A stretch of DNA of 64,000 bases from Candidatus Dojkabacteria bacterium HGW-Dojkabacteria-1 (GTDB taxonomy: Bacteria; Patescibacteriota; Dojkabacteria; SC72), in the NCBI GenBank assembly GCA_002840365.1, contig PHAO01000001.1, positions 239,242 to 303,241 on the forward strand, read 5' to 3'. The notes under the pieces were generated by a model. The model made no database searches. It saw only the letters and a program-made list of their open reading frames with translations, and was not told the DNA's origin. Each line of letters begins with the position of its first letter. The first letter of the stretch is position 1. Below are positions 2,213 through 53,995 of the stretch, piece by piece. A program made the position numbers and the translations under genes.

Positions 2213-3602
2213 TTAATCGATCAGGGAAGATATCTTTACCAATCGTAGGAATCATATTCCAATCCACATCAATATATTCAACAGGATTTGTATGTGTAGA
2301 AGAACTTAATCCTTTCCTTGTTTCGAAATGAAGATGATATCCAAGATTTTGACAATTCCATTTCCCACTGTTTCCACTAATACCTAGTACTTGATTTCTT
2401 TTTACAGACTCACCAATCTTTACACTGTAGGAATTCAAATGAAAGTAGGTGGAGTACATTCCATTCTTGTGCTTAAGGATTACAAAGTTACCACCTTGAT
2501 TACACTCCCCTCCATACTTGTCATATCCCACATTAACTACTGTAGCATCTGCAATACTTACGACTTTGTTTAGTTTTGCTCCAAAATCGATTCCCTTGTG
2601 TGGGCATTGATACTTTGTACACCCATACCACTGTGTAACCCCAAGATATCTTTCTAATGGGAAAGAGAACGGCTTAATCACAGGCGTAGCCTTTTGCATA
2701 GATATGGGTACTTTCTTTGTATATATTAAATCTACCCAAATATCTCTTTTGAATGAAAGATATATATTAAGCACAAAAGTTACTTTTTTCGAAGAGATAT
2801 CTGTATTGAATATTGTGTTGGTGAAGAATGCAGAATCCTTGAAACCAAAAGAGGAATTCTTTTGGTACATACCATCGACTTCAATATATCCATAGTAGAT
2901 TGGTTGAAGATTTCTTAGCTTCTTCTCAATTAATACCTGTTTGCATTTTCCCCAAGTATCAAAGTCTAGAAGAGAAAAAGGTTTGCACTCATATACATAT
3001 GTCTCTACTGATATTTCTTTTCTGTATATGCCATCTAAAGAAAGAGAGAAGTAGGTATTCCAATCTAAATACTTTGTATTCGTAATAGAAATACCTAAAT
3101 CACAATCAAGACTCTGTATTGAGTATGTCTCTTTCTTTAATATTGAAAGAGTACATTGGGTAGTATTGTTTTCTTGTATACCTTTTACTTCGGGAATATC
3201 TACAATTCTTGGCTCCTCATATATTTCTGTAAGAACAGATCTTTTTTCTACTGGGGGAAGGACCGGAGTAGGAATATCTTCAGGAGTATCTGGTATTTGT
3301 GGAGGGGTATAGGTTTTGTCAAAGAAGAAACAATCCAAGTCTTTGTAGTAGTAATCTTCCCTATCAATATATTTGTATCTCAGCCTCCTACAGTAGAAGG
3401 AGTTTTCTAAATGATATGTATATTCATATGTATTTGTCGTTGGCCAATGAGATATTTCAATATATTTAAAATCTTGCGTATATGAATATTGCAACTCATA
3501 TTCAATATTGTTGCCTAATGATTCCCACTCTGTTTTAAGAGGTAATTGAGAATATGTTGGGTATGAAATATTTAGTACAGTTGCAAATATTAGTGGTATC
3601 AT
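2184..3602 (-). CDS. secreted M23-family (LytM-type) metallo-endopeptidase
   Basis: N-terminal signal peptide; C-terminal HKGIDFGA ... NSGKWNCQNLGYHLHFE segment matching the M23 HxxxD / HxH metal-binding pattern. Confidence 0.75.
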   Translation of the reverse strand: MIPLIFATVLNISYPTYSQLPLKTEWESLGNNIEYELQYSYTQDFKYIEISHWPTTNTYEYTYHLENSFYCRRLRYKYIDREDYYYKDLDCFFFDKTYTPPQIPDTPEDIPTPVLPPVEKRSVLTEIYEEPRIVDIPEVKGIQENNTTQCTLSILKKETYSIQSLDCDLGISITNTKYLDWNTYFSLSLDGIYRKEISVETYVYECKPFSLLDFDTWGKCKQVLIEKKLRNLQPIYYGYIEVDGMYQKNSSFGFKDSAFFTNTIFNTDISSKKVTFVLNIYLSFKRDIWVDLIYTKKVPISMQKATPVIKPFSFPLERYLGVTQWYGCTKYQCPHKGIDFGAKLNKVVSIADATVVNVGYDKYGGECNQGGNFVILKHKNGMYSTYFHLNSYSVKIGESVKRNQVLGISGNSGKWNCQNLGYHLHFETRKGLSSSTHTNPVEYIDVDWNMIPTIGKDIFPDRLSGENPHPNF

Positions 3603-21641: not shown

Positions 21642-24600
21642 TTATGTTCTTGCTATCTTAAGATTTCTGTTAATCAATTTTCTTCCCTTAGTTGATATTT
21701 CTGTTTTACCTTCTACAATCTTTATACCACTATCTGTTGTTTCTATAATATATTCTCCTTTCTCTGAGATATCAAATGAGTATCTCCCTTCCGAGTCTGT
21801 AACTCTTTTTGCTACTACCTTATCAAAATCTTTGTCCTTAAGTATGAGTATGATATTTACAGCGGGTGTACCATTTTCATAAAGAACTTTTCCTGTTTTT
21901 CTTCTCATACCAATAATGCTTTTTACAAGAACATATGTGGTTGGAATGTAAAGTAGTAATATCGCTAGGTTTTGTGTAATTGGATTCTTTGAGTATACAT
22001 ATGAAGCTATTGTAATACCTCCAAGGAAGAGAATTAGGTTTATGATTGGTAGTATAGATGAAGCAAAACTTCTGAAGAGAGTAAATGCTTTCTTTTGTAT
22101 TGCTTTCTGATCTGGGTCTATGGGGATTACAACATTTATTTCATTTTCCTTAAGCAGTATCTTTTCTCCGTGGTATACATTGGAAAGTGGGTAATCTTCC
22201 TTTCCAAGTATTAGTTTAGATGGGAAGTCATAGTTTCTTCCTTTCACTTCAAGTATATATTCTCCGGTAGGGATGTCTGTTCTAAAGAGTCCATACCCAT
22301 CTGTTACTGCAGTATCAACAAGTTTTTTCTCAAGATCATATATTCTAACAATTGCTTGCTGTATTGGTGCTCTTGTAATTGAATCATATACATATCCAGC
22401 AGGGTATCTCTTTCTTCTAAACCCTATTGAGCTTAGGATGTTGATAAAGATTTGTGACATAGCATATCCTACCTGTCCAAGGTTTCCTAAGATTGATGCT
22501 AATCCTACTGAAACAGTAACTGCAGTAGCAGTAGCTGATACCGTAGTGAGTCTTTCTTTTTCTATATTTCCCAGTGGTGAGCTATCAAGTAAATTGAATG
22601 TTGTAGTTACTACTCCCTCTACTGCATTAGAGATGTTGTCCCTTATTCTTCCTGTTGTTGGTATTACTGCTGGTTTCTCATACAGTTCTCCCTGTGCACC
22701 TGTTCCTCTTAGTCCATCTGCTATCCAATATGTTACTCCTGATATACTTGCTTGAGATACTGTTACATCATTTCCTTCGACTTTTAGCTTTTGAGGGAAG
22801 TTTCCTGTATACAGGACTGCTTTGTTACAATCAACTTTTATTTCTTCTAAGCTTCTTGCTTCTGGACATATTCTAAATGCGTTGTCTGAATCCTTTTTAA
22901 CTACATACATAGTATACTTATCTGTTAATCCATGTGTAGTATTAAGCTTCACAACAGTCTTACCTTGTTGTGGAGAAGTTTGAATAATTGCATTACTCCA
23001 GTCTCTGTTGTTCTCAAATGATATTGGTAAGTCAGCTACAACAAAATCTTCAGTTAAGATTCTTACTGTTTGAACACCTGTTTGTGCTCCTTCAACATTA
23101 CTTACATCAATATTTCTGTTGTCTACAAGTATAGTACTTATGTTTTCAGGCTTGTTAAGAATAATGGAGAATGTTTTACCTGTATTACTTTCTACAAATG
23201 CAGTTTCTACATTTGCATTGTTAATAGCCTTAACTCTAAATGCATATTGGGCTCCAGGTTCAAGAGATCTAATTGTTAAACCGGTATTTCCTCCCCATGA
23301 TGAATGCGTTCCCCAAACGACATTGTCTACAAGTTGCATGGTTGTATAGTCAAGATATTTTCCAGTGTTACTTTCCTGTATTGCAAATCTTGTAGTAGTG
23401 GGGTTTCCATTTCTGTCGAATCTTATCCTACCTGTACTTCCTCCTACGGTTTCAAAGATTAGGTCTCTTGGAAGGTTGGCCCATGTGGTAGCAGAAATTG
23501 TTTCAGAGAATCCTGAGAACAAATTATCTGAGTTAACGCTTCTTACTCTAAAGGTATATGTTGTATTTGGTGGAAGATTTGCTAATGTGAAGTTACTGTT
23601 TACTCTTGTATCATCATGTATTACTGTTGCAGTTGTAAATCTGTTTTCGTTATCAATATTTCCATTTGTTACTGCTTCAACCAATTGATATCTTGTATTT
23701 GCAGGATTAAGATTCTTGTCTACAGTTAATTCTATTGAACTTCCACTAATTACTCTTGCTCTTACACTTGGTACTCTTGAGAAGGTATGTGCACTTATTG
23801 ATTGGGAACAATCTGTTTCAAGATTTTGAGAGTTTCTTGCTCTTACACAGAATGTATATCTTGTATTGGCTTCTAGGTTTTGAATATTTACTCCACTGTT
23901 ACTACCGAAATCTTGTAAGGATCTCCATACAGGTTGTGTATCGAATACTCTTGTTGATGGATTCACATTCTGATTACGATTTACTTCCATTAATCTGTAT
24001 GTAGTAGAGGTGTTGTTACTGTTAGCATTAATCACTACAGACATTGTAGTTGTATCAATTGCTGTTACAGAGGTAATAGCTGGTTGGTAAGAAAGAGTAA
24101 TGATACTTACTTCATTACCATATTCTGTCTCTATGGAGTCATCATTAAGGGCTTTTACTCTGAAGGTATATTCTGTATTTGGTAATAGTCCATATACGGT
24201 TATTCCATTATTTGAGCCCAACTGTATATATGTTGCATAGTAGGGTGAGTCCTGAAGTAATTGAGAGTTAGTATTAAGATATTTCCCAGAGATTTTTTCT
24301 TGTAGAAGATATCTAGTAGTAGAAGGATTATTATTTGTATTTACAGTTAAGTCAACACTGTCAGCAGTATATTTTCCTGCTGTAATATTTTGTAATGATG
24401 GTACATTTGCAAACGTTATTGCAGAAACCACATTACTAAATGTACTCTCTGCAATACTGTTGTATATTTTCATTTTCCTTGAGTAAGAGGTATTAGGTTG
24501 CAGGTTGTTTTCTGTACAGCTAAGTATTTCTGTCCCAAGACAGGTTTTAATTAATACTCCATTTTCGTTATACAACTTAATACCTAATATACTGTCTGTA

Positions 24601-27600
24601 TATTCAGATATTCTCCATGTTATTTGACTACTTGAATCAACAACTGGAGCTATTGCTGTGATTGGTGAGAGTAGGGTAGTAGCAGAGGATGTTCCAGAGA
24701 AGTCCGTTTCAACATTTTCTCCATTTCTTGCTTTAACCTTGAAAGTGTATGTTGTTCCTGAATTTAACCCTATTACACTAAATGGTGTTAAATCTGCATT
24801 GTTCTCTCCCCAGAATGGAGTTGCTTGTAATTCTCCTGTTGTTAAATTTAGATATTTGCCTGTAAATGTTTCTTGTATTAGAAGCTCAGTATATTCTGGA
24901 TTTGCTCCATTCAGTACTCTTAGAGATATTGTTGAATTACTTGTAGCATATACATCTGTAAGACTTGGTGTTGTTGCGAGTGTATATGTAGAAATTTGGG
25001 TTGAATAAAGGGTTTCTTGTCCATCGAAGTTTCTTGCTTTTACTCTGAATGTGTACTGTGTATTTGGTTGTAATCCTATTGCTACATCTGATGTACTTTT
25101 AATCCACTCCCTTATTCCCGAATCACATCCTGTTTCTATACATTCAAAGAAGAGTCCAGAATCTCCTGTTGAGAGATTGTTTACTCCAGTTGCATTAAGA
25201 GATACAGAGGTAGTAGAGAGTGGGCCTGCAGAGAGAGTCGGTACACTTGCTTGAGTATATATGGTTATTGTATCTGAATATTCTGTTTCAACATTATCTC
25301 CATTTCTAGCTTTTACCTTAAATGTATATGGTGTGTTGTTTGAGAGTCCTGTTACGGTAGGATTATTGTCTAGTGTCCATACATTAATATTTGTATCGCA
25401 ACTACCCTCGCAATCAAAGTACAGTTCTCCACCATTTACTGGTTGTGTTGCTGTGAGAGATATTGAAGTATCTGTCTTAACTCCAGAATATTGTATTGTT
25501 GGAACAGATACTAATGTATATGCACTTGCGCTGTTTGAGGGAGAGCTTTCTGCTTCATTGTTAAATACGATTGCGTATCTTGTATATTGTGTATTTTCAG
25601 AGAGATTCTCTTCATCACAATATGTTAGATTTTGACCTACACAAGTTACTTTAAGAATGTCATTTTCATCATACAGCATTATTCCTTCCTCTCCACTTGC
25701 ATTATCAACGAATTCCCAACGCATTGATGTGGTCGTAAGTGGTGTTCCTTTAAACTCTGTTACAGTGTTTGGTACATCAAGCATTTTAAAAGTAGCTGTT
25801 GAGGACCAAGGGCTTTCTGTACCAGGTGTATCTATGAATCTTATCCTCCAAAAGTATGTTACTCCGTTTAGTGAAAGAGCTACTCCTTCATATTGAATTG
25901 GTATTGATCTTAAGCCATTCTCAATCCGGTCACTTCCTAAAAGCGCTATATATCCACTATCCCACATAGTTGTACCTGTAAAGGAAGAATTTGTATTTAC
26001 TTGGACTTGATAATGAGTTCCAAGATCTGAAGGATCAGAATCAGTAAAGACTGCACTAAACTGAGGCTGTAATGTTGTTACTTGGGTTGGATTTGTTTGA
26101 TTGTTTGTTTCAAGTGAAGATGGTGCATTAGGTGTAGAATTCATCTTGAAGGTATTTGTTGACGACCAACCACTAACAGATCCATTTACATCCCATACTC
26201 TCATTCTCCAGTAATATGTAGTACCATCAAGTGTCAAAGTATTTCCTTGGTATGTTATATTTGGAGTTCTTGTATTGTTTGCAGTTGTGGCCATAGAGGT
26301 CTCACCACTATCCCACATAGTTGTACCTGTAAAGGAAGAATTTGTATTTACTTGTATCTGATACTTGTTACCACTGTCACCATCAGGGTCTGTAAACAAA
26401 GCGCTGAAATTAGGTTGTGTGTTTGTAATAGAGGTTGGATTTACTAATCCTTCCGTTTGTAGTTGTGTTGGGGCGCTTGCAGGAGTATTCATCCTGAAAG
26501 ATGCTGCAGAGGACCATGCCCCTTCTGCACCTTTGTTATCCCAGTATTTTATTCTCCAGTAATATGTAACTCCATTCAAAGTGAGATTAGATTGTCCATA
26601 TGTAATATTTGGTCCTCTTGTTCCTCTTGTTACTGCAGAGATATTTATTTTTCCACTATCCCACATCGTAGTACCATTAAACGCTGATGTTGTATTTACT
26701 TGTAATTGATATGACACCCCTGTATCTCCAGTATCTGGATCATTGAAAATTGCACTGAAAATAGGGTTCATTGTTGTTACTCTCGTAGGATTTGTAGCAT
26801 CATTTGTTGTAAGGCTTGTAGGTGCTGTTGGAGGTGCGTTGTAAGTCTCCTCCGCGCTTTGGGAGACATTTACAGATGCTTTTCTTTGAGCAAAAATGGT
26901 TGTTATGTATGGTGGGAGTGCTTGTACTGCGGATGTTGTCGCTGTACAGCTATGAGTATGTGTATCATGCACGAAGGCTGAACCTGAAACCCTATATATT
27001 CCCTGAGAACTTGCACTCTGTCCTCCCGTTGTAACACTTATACTGTGGGTGTGTGTTGCTCCTGCGTATGAAGAACCTGCTGTTACAGCTCCAAGTGGAA
27101 ATTTTCCATCAAGAGCGGAAAATCTTGTCCAGCCGTATGGTGGAAGAGCTGTTGTCATTTCAATAATGCCGTTACTGGCATATGTTAAGGTAGAAGCCTG
27201 TCCATATGTTACTGAATAATATGGAATGTTATTATTTCCTGCTGTAGTAGTGGTACTGTTCGTCGTATGGAAGTGGTTTGCCGCAGCACTTGTACTACTG
27301 TGGGCGTCCTTACTATCCCTAGAATTGTTTGTTCCAGTATTGTATCCACCCGTGGCACTATGTGTATGTGTTGCAGATCCCCCACTTGCTACAAACCCAT
27401 TTCCACCCTTTGGATATCTTCCTGTGAGAGTTGAATAGTAAGTGAAATTAGCAGCTAGAGTTGTTGAGTTTGTATTAAACATTGCAATGGTATTTGCTGG
27501 ATGTGAGAGAGAAGTGTTTGAACAGTAGTATAGTTGGGTGAATGGGGGGTCAATCGTTGTATCTGTTACATTTACGGTTGCTCCTGTATGAGTATGATTA

Positions 27601-28253
27601 GCTAGCTGTGCAGTAGTGTTGGGAGAATCATCGTCAGCACCATTATGGAAAGTTCCAATTGCTGTTCCAGTTGTACAACTTGCAGTTCCATGATTATGGG
27701 TACCATTGGAACTTGTGCCATAGGAGGAGGAACCATATGGAAATTTCCCATCATATACACTTTCTCTAGTCCATCCACTTGGGCATGATGCAGAAGAAAG
27801 GACAAGGAATTTCCCACTCCAGGATGCTTGTCCACTTGTTGCGGAAGGGTTTGAATAGTAGAGATAAATTGTCTTACCTGCTGCAGGAAGACTTGGAATT
27901 CTGACCCAAACTTGTGTAGTTGTTGTATTACATCCTCCCTCTATCCAGTATGCAAGTAATGTCGTGTCATTACTATCAACAAATCGTAAGTCATTACAAT
28001 TAGATTGTAATTTTCCACTTGATATTAATGTTGATGTATTTACCACTACTAAAACATCTTCGTTTGTAAGGTCGGAACCTGTACCACTAACTGTTAATGT
28101 TCTTCTATTTGCCCAACTACTGTTATACCAGCCCCTTACCTCTTGTACATTCGTACTCATTACAAATATAGCCGTGATTAAACCAGTAAGACTAAGAAGT
28201 GCAATTACAAATATCAATATTTTCCTAAGTTTCTTTTTCTTGGCAGTTTTCAC
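21642..28253 (-). CDS. giant (2203 aa) cell-surface protein: N-terminal DUF2341/LamG-like domain, His/Thr-rich HTH-repeat region, about ten tandem Fn3 domains, C-terminal carboxypeptidase-regulatory-like domain and TM anchors
   Basis: N-terminal TM/signal; LRFVDSNDTTLLAYWIEGG ... VWVRIPSLPAAGKTIYLYYSN (DUF2341-like); repeated ATHTHS/HDTHTHS motifs; repeated TYYWRI(K/R) ... WSS and YTF(K/R)VKARN ... ETEYS Fn3 units with about 100-aa period; C-terminal GFRRKRYPAGYVYDSITRAPIQQAIVRI module. Confidence 0.85.
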   Translation of the reverse strand: MKTAKKKKLRKILIFVIALLSLTGLITAIFVMSTNVQEVRGWYNSSWANRRTLTVSGTGSDLTNEDVLVVVNTSTLISSGKLQSNCNDLRFVDSNDTTLLAYWIEGGCNTTTTQVWVRIPSLPAAGKTIYLYYSNPSATSGQASWSGKFLVLSSASCPSGWTRESVYDGKFPYGSSSYGTSSNGTHNHGTASCTTGTAIGTFHNGADDDSPNTTAQLANHTHTGATVNVTDTTIDPPFTQLYYCSNTSLSHPANTIAMFNTNSTTLAANFTYYSTLTGRYPKGGNGFVASGGSATHTHSATGGYNTGTNNSRDSKDAHSSTSAAANHFHTTNSTTTTAGNNNIPYYSVTYGQASTLTYASNGIIEMTTALPPYGWTRFSALDGKFPLGAVTAGSSYAGATHTHSISVTTGGQSASSQGIYRVSGSAFVHDTHTHSCTATTSAVQALPPYITTIFAQRKASVNVSQSAEETYNAPPTAPTSLTTNDATNPTRVTTMNPIFSAIFNDPDTGDTGVSYQLQVNTTSAFNGTTMWDSGKINISAVTRGTRGPNITYGQSNLTLNGVTYYWRIKYWDNKGAEGAWSSAASFRMNTPASAPTQLQTEGLVNPTSITNTQPNFSALFTDPDGDSGNKYQIQVNTNSSFTGTTMWDSGETSMATTANNTRTPNITYQGNTLTLDGTTYYWRMRVWDVNGSVSGWSSTNTFKMNSTPNAPSSLETNNQTNPTQVTTLQPQFSAVFTDSDPSDLGTHYQVQVNTNSSFTGTTMWDSGYIALLGSDRIENGLRSIPIQYEGVALSLNGVTYFWRIRFIDTPGTESPWSSTATFKMLDVPNTVTEFKGTPLTTTSMRWEFVDNASGEEGIMLYDENDILKVTCVGQNLTYCDEENLSENTQYTRYAIVFNNEAESSPSNSASAYTLVSVPTIQYSGVKTDTSISLTATQPVNGGELYFDCEGSCDTNINVWTLDNNPTVTGLSNNTPYTFKVKARNGDNVETEYSDTITIYTQASVPTLSAGPLSTTSVSLNATGVNNLSTGDSGLFFECIETGCDSGIREWIKSTSDVAIGLQPNTQYTFRVKARNFDGQETLYSTQISTYTLATTPSLTDVYATSNSTISLRVLNGANPEYTELLIQETFTGKYLNLTTGELQATPFWGENNADLTPFSVIGLNSGTTYTFKVKARNGENVETDFSGTSSATTLLSPITAIAPVVDSSSQITWRISEYTDSILGIKLYNENGVLIKTCLGTEILSCTENNLQPNTSYSRKMKIYNSIAESTFSNVVSAITFANVPSLQNITAGKYTADSVDLTVNTNNNPSTTRYLLQEKISGKYLNTNSQLLQDSPYYATYIQLGSNNGITVYGLLPNTEYTFRVKALNDDSIETEYGNEVSIITLSYQPAITSVTAIDTTTMSVVINANSNNTSTTYRLMEVNRNQNVNPSTRVFDTQPVWRSLQDFGSNSGVNIQNLEANTRYTFCVRARNSQNLETDCSQSISAHTFSRVPSVRARVISGSSIELTVDKNLNPANTRYQLVEAVTNGNIDNENRFTTATVIHDDTRVNSNFTLANLPPNTTYTFRVRSVNSDNLFSGFSETISATTWANLPRDLIFETVGGSTGRIRFDRNGNPTTTRFAIQESNTGKYLDYTTMQLVDNVVWGTHSSWGGNTGLTIRSLEPGAQYAFRVKAINNANVETAFVESNTGKTFSIILNKPENISTILVDNRNIDVSNVEGAQTGVQTVRILTEDFVVADLPISFENNRDWSNAIIQTSPQQGKTVVKLNTTHGLTDKYTMYVVKKDSDNAFRICPEARSLEEIKVDCNKAVLYTGNFPQKLKVEGNDVTVSQASISGVTYWIADGLRGTGAQGELYEKPAVIPTTGRIRDNISNAVEGVVTTTFNLLDSSPLGNIEKERLTTVSATATAVTVSVGLASILGNLGQVGYAMSQIFINILSSIGFRRKRYPAGYVYDSITRAPIQQAIVRIYDLEKKLVDTAVTDGYGLFRTDIPTGEYILEVKGRNYDFPSKLILGKEDYPLSNVYHGEKILLKENEINVVIPIDPDQKAIQKKAFTLFRSFASSILPIINLILFLGGITIASYVYSKNPITQNLAILLLYIPTTYVLVKSIIGMRRKTGKVLYENGTPAVNIILILKDKDFDKVVAKRVTDSEGRYSFDISEKGEYIIETTDSGIKIVEGKTEISTKGRKLINRNLKIART

Positions 28254-42930: not shown

Positions 42931-43446
42931 TTATACTTTTTCATTCCCAATTATCTGATATATATCATTCCGAATTTTCCCAATATTGTTTACATCTGTA
43001 CTTTGTATCCTAAGTAGAGGCATATTGGCTTCTTGAAAGATTCTTTCTACTAAATTATCTCTATCTCTCCTATCATTTCTTGAGTGGGAGATATCATCTA
43101 ATTCTATTGCTAAAAGGGGTGAAAGATATACTTTGTCACAGATTACATAGTCTATAGATTTTCTTTGTATATGGCTTAGAGCCCCTTTCCAGTCTTGTCC
43201 TATTACTTTGTTATCTAATATTGAATCTAAATGTATCTGTGGAAATATGTAATATCGGTTATCTAACAGTTGGTTTAAGGTCTTAAAGAGATCGGATTCC
43301 GCTTTTGTTAATAGGTACTTCTTTCTAGTATATTGATATATTTTTTTGGTTTTATACCTATTTTTCTTTTTTATTAATGATGAAACTACAGAGAGTAATG
43401 CAAAGATAGGGATGAGGATTAGGATGTATATTATGAAGGTATCCAT
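42931..43446 (-). CDS. membrane-anchored DUF2726 (NERD-like) domain protein
   Basis: N-terminal TM; KSIDYVICDK ... AIELDDISH ... RDRDNLVERIF resembles the DUF2726 pattern. Confidence 0.5.
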   Translation of the reverse strand: MDTFIIYILILIPIFALLSVVSSLIKKKNRYKTKKIYQYTRKKYLLTKAESDLFKTLNQLLDNRYYIFPQIHLDSILDNKVIGQDWKGALSHIQRKSIDYVICDKVYLSPLLAIELDDISHSRNDRRDRDNLVERIFQEANMPLLRIQSTDVNNIGKIRNDIYQIIGNEKV

Positions 43447-43472
43447 GTTAATAGTATATATTGTTGTTTAGA

Positions 43473-44054
43473 TTATTCAAAACTTTTAAAAATTTCTTTG
43501 TAAAAGGAAAATTTTGAAGAAACATTATTATTTAAAACCTCTAGAGTGTGCCCAAGCATCTGATAATTAACAGAGAGTATCGCATCCTCACTTAATAAAG
43601 GATAATCCTTCTTTAAGTTTGTCCAATCAAGAGATTCTGCATTTACATGGCTAAAACTATGAGTGATTTTTACTACCTTATTGTAGTATTCTTTTGAAAA
43701 TCCAACCTCTAACATTCTCTCCCCAAGGTTACTTTTTGTCCATCTCTTCCCGAATCCAAAATCATCTTTGGAGATATCTACGAGATATTCCTTTATTCTC
43801 GTTTCAAAATTTTTATTTAAAATCCATTTTAAATTTACGGTATTTTCTATTAAAGATCTTAGTAAGATGGCTGCTTCCTGAGTAAAATTCTTCTCACATA
43901 ATAAAAGAATTGCCCCAGTAATATGAAATGAATTATAAGAGAGGCTGTGGATTAAAATATTTTTAGGAGTTTTTTCATAATTTCTTCCGATTTCGTCGAA
44001 GACAGAGTCCGTTTTTTTAATAGTATCAACAATTACACTTCTATATTGTCTCAT
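43473..44054 (-). CDS. hypothetical protein immediately downstream of the Type IIG RM gene (overlapping stop/start)
   Basis: 193-aa ORF overlapping the RM gene end by 14 nt; no motifs. Confidence 0.45.
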   Translation of the reverse strand: MRQYRSVIVDTIKKTDSVFDEIGRNYEKTPKNILIHSLSYNSFHITGAILLLCEKNFTQEAAILLRSLIENTVNLKWILNKNFETRIKEYLVDISKDDFGFGKRWTKSNLGERMLEVGFSKEYYNKVVKITHSFSHVNAESLDWTNLKKDYPLLSEDAILSVNYQMLGHTLEVLNNNVSSKFSFYKEIFKSFE

Positions 44055-47000
44055 TTTTTATATTTTTATCAATTTCTTTCATAATCCTATCTGTTTTTTC
44101 TAGAATTACTATTATTTTTTGATAATGCTCTATGTCTATGTTAGTTAATTCTATTCCTCTTCTATCCTTTAACCATTTTTGTGCAGGCTGATAACCACCT
44201 ATATAGAAATTCCATGCAATTTCAGACACATTTCCAAAGTATTGGGTATCATTAATATAGACATTGCTGTTTTTGTATCTTATTTTTTCTACAACATCAG
44301 ATCCACTAATAGGATATGTAGTTATATATTTATTAATTTTTGATGATTCCATTAAATGTAATTCTCTTAGTTTTGTTCCTATCTTTACTAATTTCTTAAA
44401 AGATTCTTTGTCTTTAGGGTATGGTACTCTAGGAAAATCTATCTTTAAGAATTCTTTGTATTTCTCCCTATATTTAGGACTATGTAATACTGCATATATA
44501 TAATCAAAGATATCTTCTGGTGTAGTTTTACCAACTATTTCCTCTATTTTTTTCACTATTTCGGTATTCAAGTTTGGTGTTTTAGTACCATCGTCGGAAT
44601 AGAGGTAGAGTGGGAAGACATAGCTATTATCTAATGGGGAGCAAATAGCCTTATCAGTTATATCCTTTGTCACAAAGTAACAATGAAATGGGCTTCGGTC
44701 TCTTTTTGTGCTATTTAGAACGAAATTAGGCTTTTCGAGAATATGTTTCATAACTGCATGTCGAGGATTGAAAACAATGTTCTTATGATAATAAATAAAT
44801 CTGTTATCAAAAATCCTGTAAGAGTATGTCTTAATCAAATCTTCCCTATATGTTTTTCCTCCTTTTCTTGTGTCAGATAATTTCCAAAGAGCGTTGTCTT
44901 GGAGTGAATATTTTGATTTAATTTCTTCATCTGTTAGGTTAGGATCATAGAAGTCTTTAATCTTTTTCTCTAAGTTATTTTTGTTTGTATTTACAGCATA
45001 ATTGTCCTTTGCGGTAGTAATACCCATACTGTGAACTTTAAAAAATTCTTGCAATGAAATTCCTCTGTTATATTCATTTATATTTTCATAATTTTTTTCC
45101 TCAAAGAAGTAGTAAGGTTCTTGATACTTTATTTGTAGAAAAGGAGTAGATCCAATTTTGAGTGAATTTAACTCTCTTAATTTCTTTTCTCTAGTTCCCC
45201 AGATATCATATCTAAATATTTTTCCTAATTCATTAGATTTTTTCTTGTTTGTTTTTATACCAATAAATATTGCTACTCCAGGTTGAATATCAAAAACATT
45301 TTCATCTTTACTTCCATCTGGACTAATATCTTTTGTCTTTGTATTTCCATGCAAATCTATTATGTAGATTTTGTCAAAGGTTTTAAGTAAACTCCATCTC
45401 ATACCCCTAAAGGTGGGATTTTCTAAGTAACCATGGTTTGTTATGAAGGCAACAATTCCAGAATTATTCTTTTCAATGAAATTCTCTGCTAAGCCAAAAA
45501 ATTTTACATAATCATCATTTAGCCAATGTTTTTTTTCTTTTAATTTCTCATCTCCTCCTGGCTCAACTTTGTATTTATTAATTATACTCTTCGCATAAGG
45601 AGTTTCGTTTGAGGAAACTCCGCTATAAGGAGGATTTCCTATTACCACCATAACGGAAGTGTTTCTCTTAATCTTTTCTGCTTCCTTAGATTCTTCGGTA
45701 ATACTTTCTGCAAAACCAAAAGAAAATAGACCTTCTTGTTTAATCCCTTGTTCTAAGGCATTTGTTAAATAAATACCTAATCTTTTATTAAAATGTATAA
45801 AGCCAGTCTTTTTAAATGCAATACTTAGCTTAAGGTGAGCTATGGTATATGGAGCCATCATTAATTCAAAAGCATGAATACGAGGTAAAAGATCATGATG
45901 AACATATGAAGGCCACCGGCCTTTTTGACCAGAATCTAAAATATTTTTATAAATGAGGTTTATAACTGCACTAATAAAAGTCCCTGTTCCAGTGGCAGGA
46001 TCCAATACTTGAACAGTATGTTTTCCATCTGCAGATTTTGAAGTATCTGCTAAACCATTGTGAAGATTAAAATCTTTTTTGAGAATGGTATCTACTGAAG
46101 TCACGATGAAATTCACAACGGGGAGGGGTGTATAGTATGCCCCCATTCTTTTTCTTAAAGCAGGATCATACTCTTGAAGGAAGTCTTCGTAAAAATGTAT
46201 CACAGGATCTTTACCATCTTTTTTTTCAAAGTATTCCTCAAGTAGATTTTTTACATCAGCATGAGAGAAAATTTGGCAAAGTTCATCTACAATATATTCC
46301 AATCTTTTATCGAAATTAGGTCCTGCTATATGATCGAAAAAATGCATTAGTAAGGGATTGGATTGGGGTACTAAATCTCTTGCTTCCTGCCTTGTAAAAC
46401 GATCTTGAGATTCATCGTTATATCTTGCTGCGAATAAGCCGTAGACCAATGTCTGGGCATACATATCCGCAAAAGATTCTACAGTTAGATCGCTTACTAA
46501 AAGTTTCTTAATCATTTCATAGACTCTCGCAATTTCTGTTCCTTCTTTTAAGAATTCTTTAACATTATCTCTTATTCTTTGTGCTTTCCCCGCCATTATT
46601 TTTGAGAGGTGAGCTCCCGATTTAATTGGTTCTTTGTATGATTTTGAGAAATCAACGAGCGTCTTTTCTAAAAGGACATAGTTATCGGGGATAGAAGATA
46701 TTGTTTTTGTTTTTTTATCGACATTTCCAATTTTAATAGGTTCCTGATATAAAAGACCATTTCTGTAAAAGCGAAATTCTAGATAATCAGTTAATACAAG
46801 ATTTGCATATCCATAGTACCTAGCCATTTGCTCAGATTTTTCTATCTTGTCTAAAGATACTCCTAAATCCTTTGTTTCCATGTATAAGATAGGGATTTCC
46901 CCATTAAAAATAACAAAGTCTGGTTTATTTTTATCCTCGGTTTTAGCCTCTTGCCTTATTTTTCTTACTTCAATTCGATTAAAAATTTCCTGTAGTAGAT

Positions 47001-47094
47001 TCTGTATTGGTGTTCTATATGAATACTCTGTTCCTTTTTCACTTTTGTATATTTCAGATATGGAAGAAAGATATTTTTCGAAGGTTTGTTGCAT
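44041..47094 (-). CDS. Type IIG/IIL-like restriction-modification enzyme: N-terminal PD-(D/E)xK nuclease fused to a gamma-class N6-adenine DNA methyltransferase and a C-terminal target-recognition region
   Basis: KPDFVIF-x11-ETKD (PD ... ExK); motif I VLDPATGTGTF; motif IV VIGNPPYSG; 1017 aa; AT-rich relative to flanks. Confidence 0.8.
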   Translation of the reverse strand: MQQTFEKYLSSISEIYKSEKGTEYSYRTPIQNLLQEIFNRIEVRKIRQEAKTEDKNKPDFVIFNGEIPILYMETKDLGVSLDKIEKSEQMARYYGYANLVLTDYLEFRFYRNGLLYQEPIKIGNVDKKTKTISSIPDNYVLLEKTLVDFSKSYKEPIKSGAHLSKIMAGKAQRIRDNVKEFLKEGTEIARVYEMIKKLLVSDLTVESFADMYAQTLVYGLFAARYNDESQDRFTRQEARDLVPQSNPLLMHFFDHIAGPNFDKRLEYIVDELCQIFSHADVKNLLEEYFEKKDGKDPVIHFYEDFLQEYDPALRKRMGAYYTPLPVVNFIVTSVDTILKKDFNLHNGLADTSKSADGKHTVQVLDPATGTGTFISAVINLIYKNILDSGQKGRWPSYVHHDLLPRIHAFELMMAPYTIAHLKLSIAFKKTGFIHFNKRLGIYLTNALEQGIKQEGLFSFGFAESITEESKEAEKIKRNTSVMVVIGNPPYSGVSSNETPYAKSIINKYKVEPGGDEKLKEKKHWLNDDYVKFFGLAENFIEKNNSGIVAFITNHGYLENPTFRGMRWSLLKTFDKIYIIDLHGNTKTKDISPDGSKDENVFDIQPGVAIFIGIKTNKKKSNELGKIFRYDIWGTREKKLRELNSLKIGSTPFLQIKYQEPYYFFEEKNYENINEYNRGISLQEFFKVHSMGITTAKDNYAVNTNKNNLEKKIKDFYDPNLTDEEIKSKYSLQDNALWKLSDTRKGGKTYREDLIKTYSYRIFDNRFIYYHKNIVFNPRHAVMKHILEKPNFVLNSTKRDRSPFHCYFVTKDITDKAICSPLDNSYVFPLYLYSDDGTKTPNLNTEIVKKIEEIVGKTTPEDIFDYIYAVLHSPKYREKYKEFLKIDFPRVPYPKDKESFKKLVKIGTKLRELHLMESSKINKYITTYPISGSDVVEKIRYKNSNVYINDTQYFGNVSEIAWNFYIGGYQPAQKWLKDRRGIELTNIDIEHYQKIIVILEKTDRIMKEIDKNIKNETI

Positions 47095-49612: not shown

Positions 49613-50704
49613 ATGAAAAGATTTAGATTAACTAACAATAACTGGGACGAAGCAATTAAAGAAGCAGTAAAGGTACTAAATGAAGGTGGGCTTGTAGTAT
49701 ATCCTACAGAAACCTGTTATGGTATTGCTGTAGATGCTACTAATGAGAGAGCATTAAGTAAGCTTCTCTCATACAAAACATTCAGAGGTTCCAAACCTAT
49801 CTCAGTAGCTGTAGCTAATAGAGAGATGGCAGAAAGGTATGTAGAAATAAATGAAATGGCAGAAAATATATACAAGAACTACTTACCAGGACCAATAACT
49901 GTGGTATCAATGAGTAAAGGAGTTCTTAAACCACCAGTTGTTTCTAAGCAAGATTCTACCGGTATTAGAATACCAGATTACAAATTTACACTTAAGTTGA
50001 TTGAATCTTTTGGAAGACCAATTACTGCGACCTCTGCAAATGTATCTTACAAACCACATCCATACAGTATTGATCAATTGATAAAGGATTTACCTAAGAA
50101 AAGTGAATCCCTTATTGATCTATTCTTAGATGATGGAGAACTACCAAAAAATGTACCATCTACAATATTAGATACCACTATGAATACTCTTACTGTACTA
50201 AGGGAAGGAAAGCTAAAATTTGAAGATGCAATTTTACAAAGTACTCTTTTGGAAGAGAAAATAACTAAGAAACCTGAACATACAAGTGATATGGGAGAGT
50301 CCTTTACTAAGGAATACCTAAAGGATTTAGAAGGTAGTGTTGTAATTGCATTAAGTGGAGAGCTAGGTGCTGGTAAAACTCAATTCACAAAAGGTATTGG
50401 AGTAGGACTTGGGGTAGAAGAGCTAGTTAATTCACCTACATATACAATCATAAATGAGTATGAATATGGTAGTAAGGTATTAGCACATATGGACACATGG
50501 AGACTCATGGATGAGGATGATTTAAACAGGTCTGGACTAATTGAGCATTTGGAGAAGGGTAACATTGTAGTAATAGAGTGGGCAGACAAATTCTACCAAG
50601 AGCTGGAAGGGATATGTCGCCAAAAAAACATCCCTATGTACAAAGTAACATTTAAATATATTTCACTTAAAGAAAGAGAGATAAAGATATATGGTACTAA
50701 CTAA
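49613..50704 (+). CDS. fusion of TsaC/Sua5 (YrdC domain, threonylcarbamoyl-AMP synthase) with the TsaE (YjeE) P-loop ATPase
   Basis: N-terminal VVYPTETCYGIAVDATNERA (YrdC); C-terminal ALSGELGAGKTQFTKGI (TsaE Walker A). Confidence 0.75.
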   Translation: MKRFRLTNNNWDEAIKEAVKVLNEGGLVVYPTETCYGIAVDATNERALSKLLSYKTFRGSKPISVAVANREMAERYVEINEMAENIYKNYLPGPITVVSMSKGVLKPPVVSKQDSTGIRIPDYKFTLKLIESFGRPITATSANVSYKPHPYSIDQLIKDLPKKSESLIDLFLDDGELPKNVPSTILDTTMNTLTVLREGKLKFEDAILQSTLLEEKITKKPEHTSDMGESFTKEYLKDLEGSVVIALSGELGAGKTQFTKGIGVGLGVEELVNSPTYTIINEYEYGSKVLAHMDTWRLMDEDDLNRSGLIEHLEKGNIVVIEWADKFYQELEGICRQKNIPMYKVTFKYISLKEREIKIYGTN

Positions 50705-51779
50705 GGAAATATTAAAAGAGAAACCATTAATACTTGCAATAGATACAAGTTGCGATGATACCTCTGTTGCACTACTTAGAGGGAGAGAGGTATTAAATAG
50801 TGAGCTTTCATCTCAGATAGAGTTACATTCTGAATTTGGGGGTGTAGTTCCTGATTTAGCAAGGAGATTACATGAGGAGAATATTGAAGAGGTTTACAAC
50901 AAAGCATTAAACAACAATCCAGGGATGATAAATAATGTGGATTACATAGCTGTAACAACTGGTCCTGGATTAGCCATAGACTTAGAAGTAGGTCTTAAGT
51001 TCGCAAAGGATTTGGCAGATAGGTATAACAAGCCTTTTGTTCCTGTTAATCATATGGAAGGGCATCTTTTTTCATCTTTACTTCTTAATTCAAAAGGTAA
51101 TGGGTTAGTAAGTGATGAGGAATTAGTAGATGCATTTCCTGCAATTGCCCTCCTTATGTCCGGAAAGCATACCGAGATAGTGTATGTAGAGAGTATTGGG
51201 GAGTACAAGAAGCTTGGTCAAACATTAGATGATGCAGCAGGAGAGGCGTTTGATAAAGTGGGTAGAGTTTTAAACTTAGGATATCCTGGTGGTCCTGTTG
51301 TAACAGAGTTTGCAAAGAGAGGAAAAAGTGGAGTAATTAAGTTTACTACTCCAATGAAGAACTCTGGAGATTTAAACTTCAGCTATTCAGGTCTTAAAAC
51401 TGCAGCATTGTACAAGTCAAAAGAATTAAGAGAAAAGGGTATTCCTGAGAGAGAATGGATATATGATTTCTGTAGAGGATTTTTAGATGCTGTAGTTGAT
51501 TCTGTAGTTATTAAATTGCAGTTAGCTATAGAGAAACATCCAGAGGTAAAAACTGTATTTGTAGGAGGAGGAGTGTTTAATAGTGAAGAGATACTTAGAA
51601 AGGTTGGTAATACTGTTAGGTCTTACAATCTTAATTACTACTTTCCAGAGATAGAGTACAGAAGTGATAACGCAGCTATGATTGGTGTTAGTGCATATTT
51701 AAATATACTTCAGGGGAAGTATATTACAGACAAAGATGAGATAGAGGAGATTGATAGAGATCCTAGACTTTCACTTTGA
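50691..51779 (+). CDS. tsaD: tRNA N6-adenosine threonylcarbamoyltransferase TsaD (Kae1/Gcp family)
   Basis: LAIDTSCDDTSVAL N-terminal motif and PVNHMEGHLF metal-binding motif. Confidence 0.85.
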   Translation: MVLTKEILKEKPLILAIDTSCDDTSVALLRGREVLNSELSSQIELHSEFGGVVPDLARRLHEENIEEVYNKALNNNPGMINNVDYIAVTTGPGLAIDLEVGLKFAKDLADRYNKPFVPVNHMEGHLFSSLLLNSKGNGLVSDEELVDAFPAIALLMSGKHTEIVYVESIGEYKKLGQTLDDAAGEAFDKVGRVLNLGYPGGPVVTEFAKRGKSGVIKFTTPMKNSGDLNFSYSGLKTAALYKSKELREKGIPEREWIYDFCRGFLDAVVDSVVIKLQLAIEKHPEVKTVFVGGGVFNSEEILRKVGNTVRSYNLNYYFPEIEYRSDNAAMIGVSAYLNILQGKYITDKDEIEEIDRDPRLSL

Positions 51780-51823
51780 CATTTTCAGAAGTAATAGAGT
51801 ATAATCCGAAGTCTTTTTTAAGG

Positions 51824-51896
51824 GCGCTGGTGGGGAAGTTGGTATCCCGTTGGATTTTAAATCCAAAGCTCGAAGGTTCAAGTCCTTCCCAGCGCG
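51824..51896 (+). tRNA. canonical 73-nt tRNA cloverleaf with anticodon TTA (reads UAA/UAG); suppressor-type tRNA with Gln-like features (discriminator G73, UUUUAAA loop)
   Basis: Acceptor GCGCTGG/CCAGCGC, D-arm GGGA-AGTTGGTA-TCCC, anticodon stem TTGGA/TCCAA with loop TTTTAAA, variable AGCTC, T-arm GAAGG-TTCAAGT-CCTTC; all arm lengths canonical. Confidence 0.55.
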
Positions 51897-51903
51897 CCTT
51901 AAG

Positions 51904-51961
51904 CAGTAGGGGTACATAGAGTGAGGTTTTCCTCCTTGTCCTCCTCAGTACCTCTACTGCT
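51904..51961. terminator. 13-bp stem hairpin (GCAGTAGGGGTAC ... GTACCTCTACTGC, one G-U pair, 32-nt loop) between the suppressor-type tRNA and the convergent eno gene
   Basis: Inverted repeat read from the sequence; the loop is long for a classical intrinsic terminator. Confidence 0.35.
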
Positions 51962-51963
51962 TT

Positions 51964-53241
51964 CTATTTCCCAAGACTGTTTTCAATGATTAGGAGTCTA
52001 TTGTATTTTGCTAACCGTTCGCCTCTATCTGGACCTCCAAATTTGGATTGTTGAGCTGGTGTACCTACAACTAGGTCTGCAATAAAGTCATCATTAGTTT
52101 CTCCACCTCTGTGTGATATTACTGCATTCATTCCGTTGTCTACGGTCATCTTTATAGCTTCCAATGTTTCTGTTACTGTTCCAATTTGATTTAGTTTAAT
52201 TAGAACGGCATTAATTGCTTTTTCTTGTATACCCTTTTGAATAAGTTTGGTATTTGTAACAAGTAAATCATCTCCAACAACTTGAAGTTTGCTTCCTAAC
52301 TCTTGTGTGAGTGTAGTCCAGCTTTCCCAGCTATCTTGCTCAAACATATCCTCTGTTGAATATATTGGATACTGTGAATACCATTCCTTTTGTATCTCAT
52401 ACCACTCCTGTGGTGAAAGAGATTTGTTTTCTTTCTTTAAATCATATTTTCCACTTTCTTTGTTGAAGAACTCCGATGCTGCAAAGTCTAGTGCTATTTC
52501 AAACTGCTCTCCTGGTTTGTATCCTGCTCTTTTAATACCTTCCAAAATAATATCTAATGATTCTTTGTTACCACTTAGTTCTTTAGGTATGTATGCCCCC
52601 TCAAATCCTACACCTACAGAGTATCCTTTCTCATCTAATACATCGTGAAGTGCATGGAATATTTCGCTCCCTGCTCTAAGTTGTTCTTTGAAGTTAGGAA
52701 AGACACCTTCCTTTGGAACTACCATGTACTCCTGTATATCTGTAGACCAATTACCATGTTTTCCACCTTCCATTACAAGTATTTGAGGTCTTGGTAGTTT
52801 AAATTTTTCTACTGAGTACTCTTTCTCCCAATATATCATTCCAATATATTCATACAGCTCTATACCAACTCTTTTTGCTACTGCTTTGCAAAATGCCATA
52901 GAGCAAGACAGTATTGAATTGCCTCCTAGTTTAGATTTATTCTCTGTTCCATCTAATTCTCTAAGAAAATCATCAAACTGTTTTTGTGATTCAAACTCTT
53001 TGTCTATGACTGCATTCTTTATAGTTGTGTTTACAATCTCTACTGCTTTAAGTACACCTTTACCATTGTATCTAGCCTTATCTCCATCTCTTAGTTCAAG
53101 TACTTCATTTACTCCAGTTGAAGCTCCACTTGGTACTTCTCCTCTTGCTTTATCTCCACTCCATAGCTCTATTTCTGTTGATATTGTTGGTATTCCTCTA
53201 GAGTCTAATATTTCTATTGCGTGTACATTCTTTATTTTCAT
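51964..53241 (-). CDS. eno: enolase (phosphopyruvate hydratase)
   Basis: Full-length match to the enolase pattern (IEILDSRG ... SHRSGETED-like HRGGETNDDFIADL ... ). Confidence 0.95.
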   Translation of the reverse strand: MKIKNVHAIEILDSRGIPTISTEIELWSGDKARGEVPSGASTGVNEVLELRDGDKARYNGKGVLKAVEIVNTTIKNAVIDKEFESQKQFDDFLRELDGTENKSKLGGNSILSCSMAFCKAVAKRVGIELYEYIGMIYWEKEYSVEKFKLPRPQILVMEGGKHGNWSTDIQEYMVVPKEGVFPNFKEQLRAGSEIFHALHDVLDEKGYSVGVGFEGAYIPKELSGNKESLDIILEGIKRAGYKPGEQFEIALDFAASEFFNKESGKYDLKKENKSLSPQEWYEIQKEWYSQYPIYSTEDMFEQDSWESWTTLTQELGSKLQVVGDDLLVTNTKLIQKGIQEKAINAVLIKLNQIGTVTETLEAIKMTVDNGMNAVISHRGGETNDDFIADLVVGTPAQQSKFGGPDRGERLAKYNRLLIIENSLGK

Positions 53242-53359: not shown

Positions 53360-53851
53360 ATGGGAGACAAAAAAGATTTACCAGCATTGATAAAGGAATG
53401 GTTTGAGCCAGATACATCTCCTACAGAAGAGATTGTGGTTGAGGTACAAGATGTAATCTTGGAAGAATTAGAGTATGAGAGTGTAAGTCAGGATGTATCG
53501 GAAGAATTACAAATGGTTGGAATAGATTCGGTAGTAGAGGAGACGGTTGGGAACGATCCTTCTGCTTTAGATTTTCTTAAGGAGAAATTTCCTTCTCTTT
53601 TGGGTAATTGTAATTCTTGGAAAGATGTATTTAAGGAGGCAGCTAGAATATCTAGAGAGGTACACAAAGAATACTTCTTTATACAGGTATTCGCATCAGG
53701 CGTCATCCTAACATATATGGCTACAAATCCATTCCTTAAATCTTTAGGTCCTGTATTAGCATCTGTGGGTTACAGAAACAGTAGTGTAATACAAAGGGGA
53801 GTATCAGAAGAGGATGTTAGAAAAGTTCTTGGAGGTAGTTCTAAAAAGTAG
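53360..53851 (+). CDS. hypothetical protein
   Basis: 163-aa ORF, acidic N-terminal half. Confidence 0.35.
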   Translation: MGDKKDLPALIKEWFEPDTSPTEEIVVEVQDVILEELEYESVSQDVSEELQMVGIDSVVEETVGNDPSALDFLKEKFPSLLGNCNSWKDVFKEAARISREVHKEYFFIQVFASGVILTYMATNPFLKSLGPVLASVGYRNSSVIQRGVSEEDVRKVLGGSSKK

Positions 53852-53964: not shown

Positions 53965-53995
53965 GAGTATTTATGGTGTATAATACACACGTTTA

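Follow-up and report, generated by a model that had tools for sequence, protein, structure and literature searches.

Does a tRNA-shaped gene with the anticodon UUA, complementary to UAA, read stop codons in a bacterium that ends its own genes with them? The question is raised by a cloverleaf located between tsaD and the enolase gene eno in the window, i.e., the whole stretch of 64,000 nucleotides analysed here; the related bacteria are Candidatus Dojkabacteria (WS6, Patescibacteria). Comparison of the locus with its orthologues indicates that the UUA copy is a genuine, well-formed tRNA-shaped gene and a member of a fast-evolving module limited to one Dojkabacteria clade, and that the anticodon is probably not a sign of stop-codon reassignment or of a dedicated ochre-decoding role.

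The cloverleaf, the genetic code and the gene neighbourhood

ARAGORN calls a tRNA-Stop(tta) at 51824–51898 of the plus strand. The Rfam tRNA model RF00005 matches 51824–51896 from end to end (68.8 bits, E 3e-15; threshold 29 bits), a score that falls among those of the window's five ordinary tRNAs (48–74 bits). Direct reading of the sequence agrees with both programs, and the cloverleaf with 7/4/5/5-bp stems, an 8-nt D loop, a 5-nt variable loop and the UUA anticodon is as originally predicted: the acceptor stem is GCGCTGG/CCAGCGC (7 bp); the D stem is GGGA/TCCC (4 bp) and its loop, AGTTGGTA, carries G18G19; the anticodon stem is TTGGA/TCCAA (5 bp); the variable loop is AGCTC; and the T arm is GAAGG-TTCAAGT-CCTTC. 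The tertiary positions U8, A14, G18G19, U33, U54-U55-C56, and A58 are all present. UUA occupies positions 34–36 of a canonical 7-nt loop with U33, A37, and A38 around it; A36-A37-A38 is the context typical for tRNAs that read U-starting codons. The discriminator G73 is followed by CC-T, and A76 is not encoded; this is uninformative, because, among the window's five ordinary tRNAs, two encode CCA and three likewise lack it. No Rfam family other than RF00005 matches the module region at E ≤ 1 or six orthologous loci at E ≤ 0.1; the covariance models of YrlA, tmRNA, mascRNA and other tRNA-like families give no match, and ARAGORN makes no tmRNA call.

With the anticodon masked, the best match of the window copy outside its own family is tRNA-Gln (50 of 73 identities, vs 48 for tRNA-Val, in a small reference set without Dojkabacteria tRNA-Gln). 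The resemblance to tRNA-Gln proposed in the original prediction holds, weakly, for this match and for G73, the D loop, the anticodon arm and the T arm, which are similar to those of tRNA-Gln(UUG), but not for the acceptor stem, where the first pair is G1-C72 and the U1-A72 hallmark of tRNA-Gln is absent. Gln is also the top match for one orthologue (L100), by a narrow margin in both cases, while other module members have no preference, so that similarity does not assign an isotype. An archaeal-type TyrRS acting with a C1-G72 tRNA-Tyr has been reported for WS6 bacteria (PMC5370408); Tyr identity through this enzyme was rejected, as it requires C1-G72 and A73, both absent in the window copy.

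The window (33% G+C) is 92% coding under translation table 11, with long ORFs intact. As had been claimed, all three stop codons are used: among 57 likely genes, TAA ends 34, TAG 21, and TGA, a rare stop here, 2. TGA is also rare in the pooled loci L003–L094 (14 of 209 stops). The earlier expectation that a dedicated suppressor would be out of place in such a genome is supported. No avoidance of TAA is seen, as it makes up about 61% (34/56) of stops here vs 72% (74/103) in relatives that lack the module (Fisher p 0.16), and the distance to the next in-frame stop is similar after TAA and TAG. In the window, no TAA or TAG readthrough extension is coding-like or fused to a downstream gene, and no in-frame stops are found in ORFs; the suggestion that the RNA is a programmed readthrough factor finds no support here, as no window gene is plausibly extended or fused by readthrough of TAA. 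SD-like motifs (GGAG, GAGG, or AGGA) occur at positions −22 to −3 from the start codon in 2 of the 57 genes, and TATAA is enriched in the same region (12 genes vs approximately 0.9 expected). This enrichment points to a large number of leaderless mRNAs, in which the −10 box would lie right before the start codon.

The genes around the cloverleaf are a tsaC-tsaE fusion, tsaD, the tRNA-shaped gene, convergent enolase, tRNA-Leu, tRNA-Val, and glnA. The fusion is one ORF with Sua5/YrdC (TsaC) and TsaE domains (49613–50704, plus strand), immediately upstream of tsaD and overlapping it. An ORF of 163 amino acids between enolase and tRNA-Leu (53360–53851, plus strand) has no Pfam match; its co-occurrence with the module was considered and rejected, as homologues are present both in some module-bearing relatives and in the module-less L018. 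The 31-nt spacer between tRNA-Leu(GAG) and tRNA-Val(UAC) (53965–53995, plus strand) contains an extended −10-like box, TGTATAAT, which suggests that tRNA-Val has a promoter of its own. Elsewhere in the window, a 1017-aa Type ISP restriction-modification enzyme (N6_Mtase, Eco57I, and Type_ISP_C domains), followed by DUF5677 and DUF2726 proteins, forms a probable defence cluster (42931–47094, minus strand), and a very large ORF of 2203 amino acids spans 21642–28253 (minus strand), with G+C content locally raised to 0.41 at 26–28 kb.

A promoter, a cloverleaf and a hairpin

Inspection of the flanks and of the orthologous loci indicates what the original prediction overlooked: the gene belongs to a module of promoter, cloverleaf, and hairpin, whose anticodon arm is different in nearly all related species and, in several of them, could not serve in decoding. 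From 5' to 3', the module comprises a consensus promoter, a short leader, the cloverleaf, a trailer, and a two-tier hairpin, and fills the space between the convergent genes tsaD and eno (Table 1).

Table 1. Elements of the module in the window
Element	Position	Strand	Description and basis
Sigma-70-type promoter	51776–51805	+	TTGACA, 18-nt spacer, TATAAT; 12/12 consensus matches
Region from −10 box to cloverleaf, including 5' leader	51806–51823	+	Conserved spacing; fold
tRNA-shaped domain	51824–51896	+	7/4/5/5-bp cloverleaf, G73, full set of canonical tertiary positions; ARAGORN, Rfam
Anticodon triplet	51857–51859	+	TTA (UUA) in loop TTTTAAA; non-conserved part of the module family
3' trailer	51897–51901	+	CCUUA; pairs with leader UAAGG, lengthening the acceptor helix beyond bulged G73 (predicted folds)
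Two-tier hairpin	51901–51962	+	Basal stem of 12–15 bp, inner stem GAG-U-GAGG/CCUC-CUC, pyrimidine-rich loop UUUUCCUCCUUGU; fold, covariation, covariance model
U-rich tract 3' of hairpin	51963–51971	+	TTTCTATTT; direct reading, inside the match of the hairpin model

The tsaD stop codon (51777–51779) falls inside the −35 box; it is one of the two TGA stops of the window and is forced by this overlap. The −10 box TATAAT is unchanged in all eight aligned orthologues, and a near-consensus promoter is present in all orthologues. Transcription is predicted to start at approximately 51811–51813, which would give a 5' leader of 11–13 nt (GUCUUUUUUAAGG). The distance from the −10 box to the cloverleaf is 17–19 nt in every orthologue, and a GTCTTT motif is kept.

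The 3' part of the leader and the trailer are paired in all minimum-energy folds. The mean energy of this duplex is −5.0 kcal/mol in the module family, while canonical tRNAs from these genomes average −2.3 kcal/mol (one-sided Mann–Whitney p 0.002, the samples being non-independent), and in L008 the two strands covary (AAAG/CUUU).

The hairpin, 62 nt long in the window, adjoins the enolase stop codon (51964–51966, minus strand). Cloverleaf and hairpin together fold with −62.7 kcal/mol (z −6.0). RNAalifold yields 19 consensus pairs for the hairpin, of which 11 show compensatory changes; the AGU..GG core does not vary. The covariance model of the hairpin, R1, matches 51900–51971 with 67.8 bits and finds one copy per module, with no further matches elsewhere in the window or in approximately 403 kb from related loci. 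The hairpin is still strong (75 bits) next to the degenerate cloverleaf of L016. The U-rich tract behind the hairpin is a probable intrinsic terminator tail; a simple terminator scan misses the pair, as the loop exceeds the length allowed by its rule.

Several other roles for this region were considered and rejected. A generic terminator or repeat does not account for the hairpin, as R1 matches are confined to the module and a simple motif search finds matches at chance level. The CCUCC of the hairpin loop as an anti-Shine–Dalgarno seed would have few targets, given the scarcity of SD-like motifs. A K-turn in the internal loop lacks the second sheared pair, and antisense or small ORFs across the module are not compatible with anticodon-arm indels that are not multiples of three and with the lack of a conserved start codon (both by inspection).

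Variation and loss at the tsaD–eno locus

Orthologous slots were compared at the tsaD loci of species-representative genomes and in further lineages reached via TsaD homologues. The module is present in 12 orthologous lineages, where promoter, cloverleaf, and hairpin are kept and the anticodon arm differs in nearly each. The anticodon is UUA in the window; CUA in L002/L090 (TsaD 96% identical); UUA again, on a different stem, in L100; CGA in L005/L084/L088; CGG in L004; and AUC in L102. The loop has 6 nt in L003; the anticodon arm is longer by 14 nt, with apical loop GAGUAAU, in L007/L091–93/L097, and by 15 nt, with a UAUA loop, in L008/L085; L016 has a degenerate form with no G18G19 and with A54. 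Several of these states are backed by independent assemblies. L102 has an additional AT-rich hairpin (GGGTATGTATATC...GATATATTTCTTCCTATACATACC, positions 3209–3262 of that locus) between the cloverleaf and the conserved hairpin; its tsaD ends with TAA, and its −35 box is weaker.

In six lineages the loop is canonical, with 7 nt and Y32, U33, A37, and A38, and the changes are confined to positions 34–36. Two separate sub-lineages, represented by the window and L100, have UUA, and another, L002/L090, has CUA, these being the members with a stop-complementary anticodon in a canonical loop; UUA, CUA, CGA, and CGG are connected by single substitutions. Among the 64 codons of these genomes, TAG is the fourth, CCG the sixth, TCG the eighth, and TAA the ninth rarest (read by CUA, CGG, CGA, and UUA, respectively), so that five of the six anticodons read stops or the rarest sense codons, and AUC reads a common codon. 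At least four lineages have no usable anticodon loop and still possess the promoter, the fold, and the hairpin. An intron in the long-arm variants was rejected by inspection, as no 14-nt deletion regenerates a Y-U-NNN-R-N loop. The variability of the anticodon arm across relatives, and the forms that cannot serve in decoding, argue against UUA as the point of the gene. Of the ochre-suppressor-type tRNA that had been proposed, the UUA in a canonical 7-nt loop stands; a suppressor role finds neither recoding nor readthrough targets in the window, and the anticodons of orthologues vary.

The fold is much better conserved than the sequence. The structure-guided alignment comprises 11 orthologues. 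Standard pairs fill 230 of its 231 stem cells (a count favoured by the use of the cloverleaf as the guide), 18 of 21 pairs vary, and 17 of 21 have double, i.e., compensatory, changes; none of 2000 column shuffles is as good (mean 170, maximum 185). Within the long-arm type (L007 vs L091 vs L097), compensatory changes go on after the loop has been disrupted. Identity to the window copy is 55–75% in more distant relatives vs 54–61% at third codon positions of tsaD, which indicates that the module RNA is diverging at a near-neutral rate, close to that of third codon positions. The tRNA-Asp of the same loci is identical at 71–77 of 77 positions (92–100%) in all relatives, and at 77 of 77 in L003, L091, L097, and L090; tRNA-Leu and tRNA-Val of these loci are approximately 86–100% identical. 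The Rfam tRNA model scores the orthologues in L100, L102, and L008 at 68, 48, and 45 bits, respectively, and does not detect those in L091, L003, and L016 at E ≤ 0.1. Unlike a fixed isoacceptor, in which anticodon and body are conserved among close orthologues, the module RNA has a variable anticodon arm and a body conserved only to the extent given above.

At least seven close relatives are without the module; it is missing in L094/95, L096, L098, L099, L101, L103, and L006, and throughout the sister clade. In these module-less relatives tsaD ends with TAA or TAG and enolase is directly next; L094 retains remnants of the promoter spacer and the 3' arm of the hairpin, a deletion scar. In the TsaD tree the module-bearing genomes all belong to one clade, a pattern consistent with a single origin followed by repeated loss. 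A scan of metagenomes with a degenerate pattern yields tsaD-linked copies from Dojkabacteria and, besides these, chance matches to ordinary tRNAs with terminators; module copies at other sites were rejected on this basis.

Candidate explanations and known systems

Our preferred reading, which we favour with somewhat more than even confidence, is that the module encodes an RNA that descends from a tRNA, mimics tRNA, and has a structural or regulatory task; the role that is conserved would be independent of decoding. It is preferred because what selection keeps is the shape of the cloverleaf together with the hairpin, while the anticodon is not kept. The module would be a self-contained transcription unit producing an RNA of roughly 150 nt, the primary transcript remaining largely intact; we infer both its expression and its non-decoding function. 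On this reading, the acceptor/T/D body together with the 3' hairpin carries the conserved function. Proteins that bind or process tRNAs might, e.g., recognise it, and within a larger RNA the cloverleaf would serve structure or processing. The arm with the anticodon would then be an appendage that evolves freely, and UUA an incidental state. We count in favour of this reading the variable arms, stem covariation, near-neutral sequence, RF00005 dropouts, co-conservation of the hairpin, leader–trailer pairing, dispensability, and absence of recoding; we count against it the Y32/U33/A37/A38 loops in six lineages, UUA seen twice together with CUA, the bias toward rare codons, and the intact tertiary positions. 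Loop retention and the bias toward rare and stop codons would make sense if the RNA reaches the ribosome and selection limits the damage. Weak readthrough of UAA as a by-product is conceivable in this genome, because the window cloverleaf is complete.

The main alternative is a working, aminoacylated supernumerary tRNA, dispensable, possibly derived from tRNA-Gln, with an easily shifted anticodon. It would act as an ochre suppressor in the window and in L100 and as an amber suppressor in L002, with low-level or conditional readthrough; the long-arm and degenerate forms would be derived, with the role lost or changed, and the leader–trailer helix and the hairpin might gate maturation. We regard this as possible but doubtful, and keep it as the main rival because of the loop architecture, the recurrence of UUA, and the rare-codon anticodons. 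The full cloverleaf, with an Rfam score on par with genuine tRNAs, the Y32-U33-NNN-A37-A38 loop of six lineages, the UUA (twice) and CUA (once) anticodons, the single steps between UUA, CUA, CGA, and CGG, all of which read stops or very rare codons, the strong promoter, and the weakly tRNA-Gln-like body are as expected of such a tRNA, although the acceptor pair is G1-C72 instead of the U1-A72 of tRNA-Gln.

By established identity rules, the AUC variant, with G73, U35, and C36, would fit AspRS, and the CGG variant, with A73, G35, and G36, would fit ProRS; however, the CGG variant has A37, where readers of CCN normally have G37, SerRS needs a long variable arm that is absent from the CGA variant, and in the predicted folds the 3' end is paired with the leader. 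Moreover, the at least four lineages without a usable anticodon loop keep the promoter, the compensating fold, and the hairpin; the body evolves near-neutrally, unlike all ordinary tRNAs nearby; and TAA is the main stop, unavoided, with no readthrough targets found in the window. In its more specific form this explanation takes the gene as a chargeable spare tRNA with a labile anticodon that reads UAA here and in L100 and UAG in L002, providing conditional readthrough in a standard-code CPR bacterium, with the helix and the hairpin gating maturation and with selection steering the anticodon to stops, very rare codons, or self-consistent identities, or disabling the loop. So specified, it seems to us improbable; if suppression were nonetheless real, the locus would represent something rare, namely ochre and amber suppressors that wild bacteria keep on their chromosomes.

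A functionless pseudogene lineage of a decaying duplicate tRNA, with the anticodons, insertions, and losses as stages of neutral decay, is quite unlikely. The frequent loss, the near-neutral divergence, the degenerate L016 form, and the anticodons without a coherent isotype are compatible with it; but stems and promoter would not have survived neutral decay, whereas no orthologue departs from the −10 box, each has a near-consensus promoter, the stems are paired and compensated as described at a divergence where third positions of tsaD are 54–61% identical, and the hairpin has an invariant core and covariation of its own.

Very little speaks for a tRNA that came from a phage or another mobile element and was inserted beside tsaD, and the phage origin suggested by the original prediction is rejected: the patchy presence among close relatives and the G+C content above the genome average could indicate mobility, but the neighbours are housekeeping genes, and no integrase, phage genes, or prophage signature are found near the module; the module pattern has no match in viral contigs; BLAST similarity to phage tRNAs is generic (E ≥ 0.01), and the only plasmid match is weak and partial (E 0.2); the distribution follows the TsaD tree, with a single origin and later deletions, one of which left a scar; and structured RNAs of AT-rich genomes normally have high G+C content. 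An altered code, in the genome or in a resident element, with UAA as a sense codon and this tRNA as its decoder, which the anticodon alone would suggest, has a negligible probability and is effectively refuted for the window by the coding density and intact long ORFs under table 11, by TAA as the end of 34 of 57 genes, by the lack of ORF pairs joined by TAA, by sister species with other anticodons, and by the lack of phage context and viral matches.

The non-decoding reading, if correct, disposes of a misleading clue: even when a tRNA call of the suppressor type is perfect, a metagenome-assembled genome does not have to use recoding or readthrough, and comparison of orthologues by synteny is a quick way to tell such calls apart. 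The locus also shows a cloverleaf kept by compensatory evolution while its anticodon moves among stop, rare-sense, and non-decoding states, and offers a natural system for asking what constrains the tRNA body once decoding is optional, and how tRNAs are recruited to other roles in reduced-genome Patescibacteria.

Classical nonsense suppressors of E. coli derive from tRNA-Gln (supB/supE), tRNA-Tyr (supC), and tRNA-Lys (supG), and are point mutants of essential isoacceptors with bodies otherwise frozen. The module shares with the ochre and amber suppressors the UUA and CUA anticodons, the A36-A37-A38 context, and a weakly tRNA-Gln-like body; unlike them, it is a separate, dispensable, fast-evolving gene with G1-C72, whose orthologues have sense anticodons or no loop. 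In MALAT1 mascRNA, the tRNA-miRNA transcripts of gammaherpesvirus-68, and bacterial YrlA, tRNA mimicry serves processing or the binding of proteins instead of decoding, and the anticodon region is little constrained. The succession of cloverleaf and hairpin resembles the tRNA-miRNA units; however, these and mascRNA are viral or eukaryotic, YrlA has a permuted topology with a Ro-binding stem, and the module has no Rfam match to such families.

Stop-reading tRNAs are known from recoded phages and from UGA-recoded Patescibacteria, some of them in or around CPR bacteria (bioRxiv 10.1101/2021.08.26.457843; PMC13059738); there, in-frame stops are abundant, whereas the module resides in a standard-code chromosome among housekeeping genes, with no matches in viral contigs. 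Orthologous tRNA genes identified by synteny can differ in anticodon between close species, as is known mainly in eukaryotes (Rogers and Griffiths-Jones, 2014; PMC3923123). Those shifts are rare single events in multi-copy genes, whereas here one single-copy bacterial slot has at least five triplets, nonsense anticodons among them, in addition to loop disruption. No tRNA-like RNAs in Patescibacteria were found in the searched literature, and Rfam 15 matches the module only with the generic tRNA model; the RNA family is apparently undescribed.

Another comparison is with tRNA-Other of Bacillus cereus, a pseudo-tRNA that forms part of a larger regulatory RNA, is expressed with extensions at both its 5' and its 3' end, and reportedly has no role in translation (Rogers et al., 2012; PMC3399842). 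Both are chromosomal tRNA-shaped elements, and the present module couples the cloverleaf to conserved flanking structure. They differ in that tRNA-Other flanks a genomic island and is iron-regulated, and the two have no sequence relationship, while the module, known here from its sequence, combines a consensus promoter of its own, which overlaps tsaD, with a specific, conserved hairpin on the 3' side and a hypervariable anticodon arm. The module may be of the tRNA-Other type in two respects. Its fold persists and covaries although several lineages have lost the anticodon loop, as would fit a role outside decoding; and, with a promoter 18 nt upstream, predicted leader–trailer pairing, and a conserved, locus-specific hairpin, the cloverleaf may be expressed within a longer transcript.
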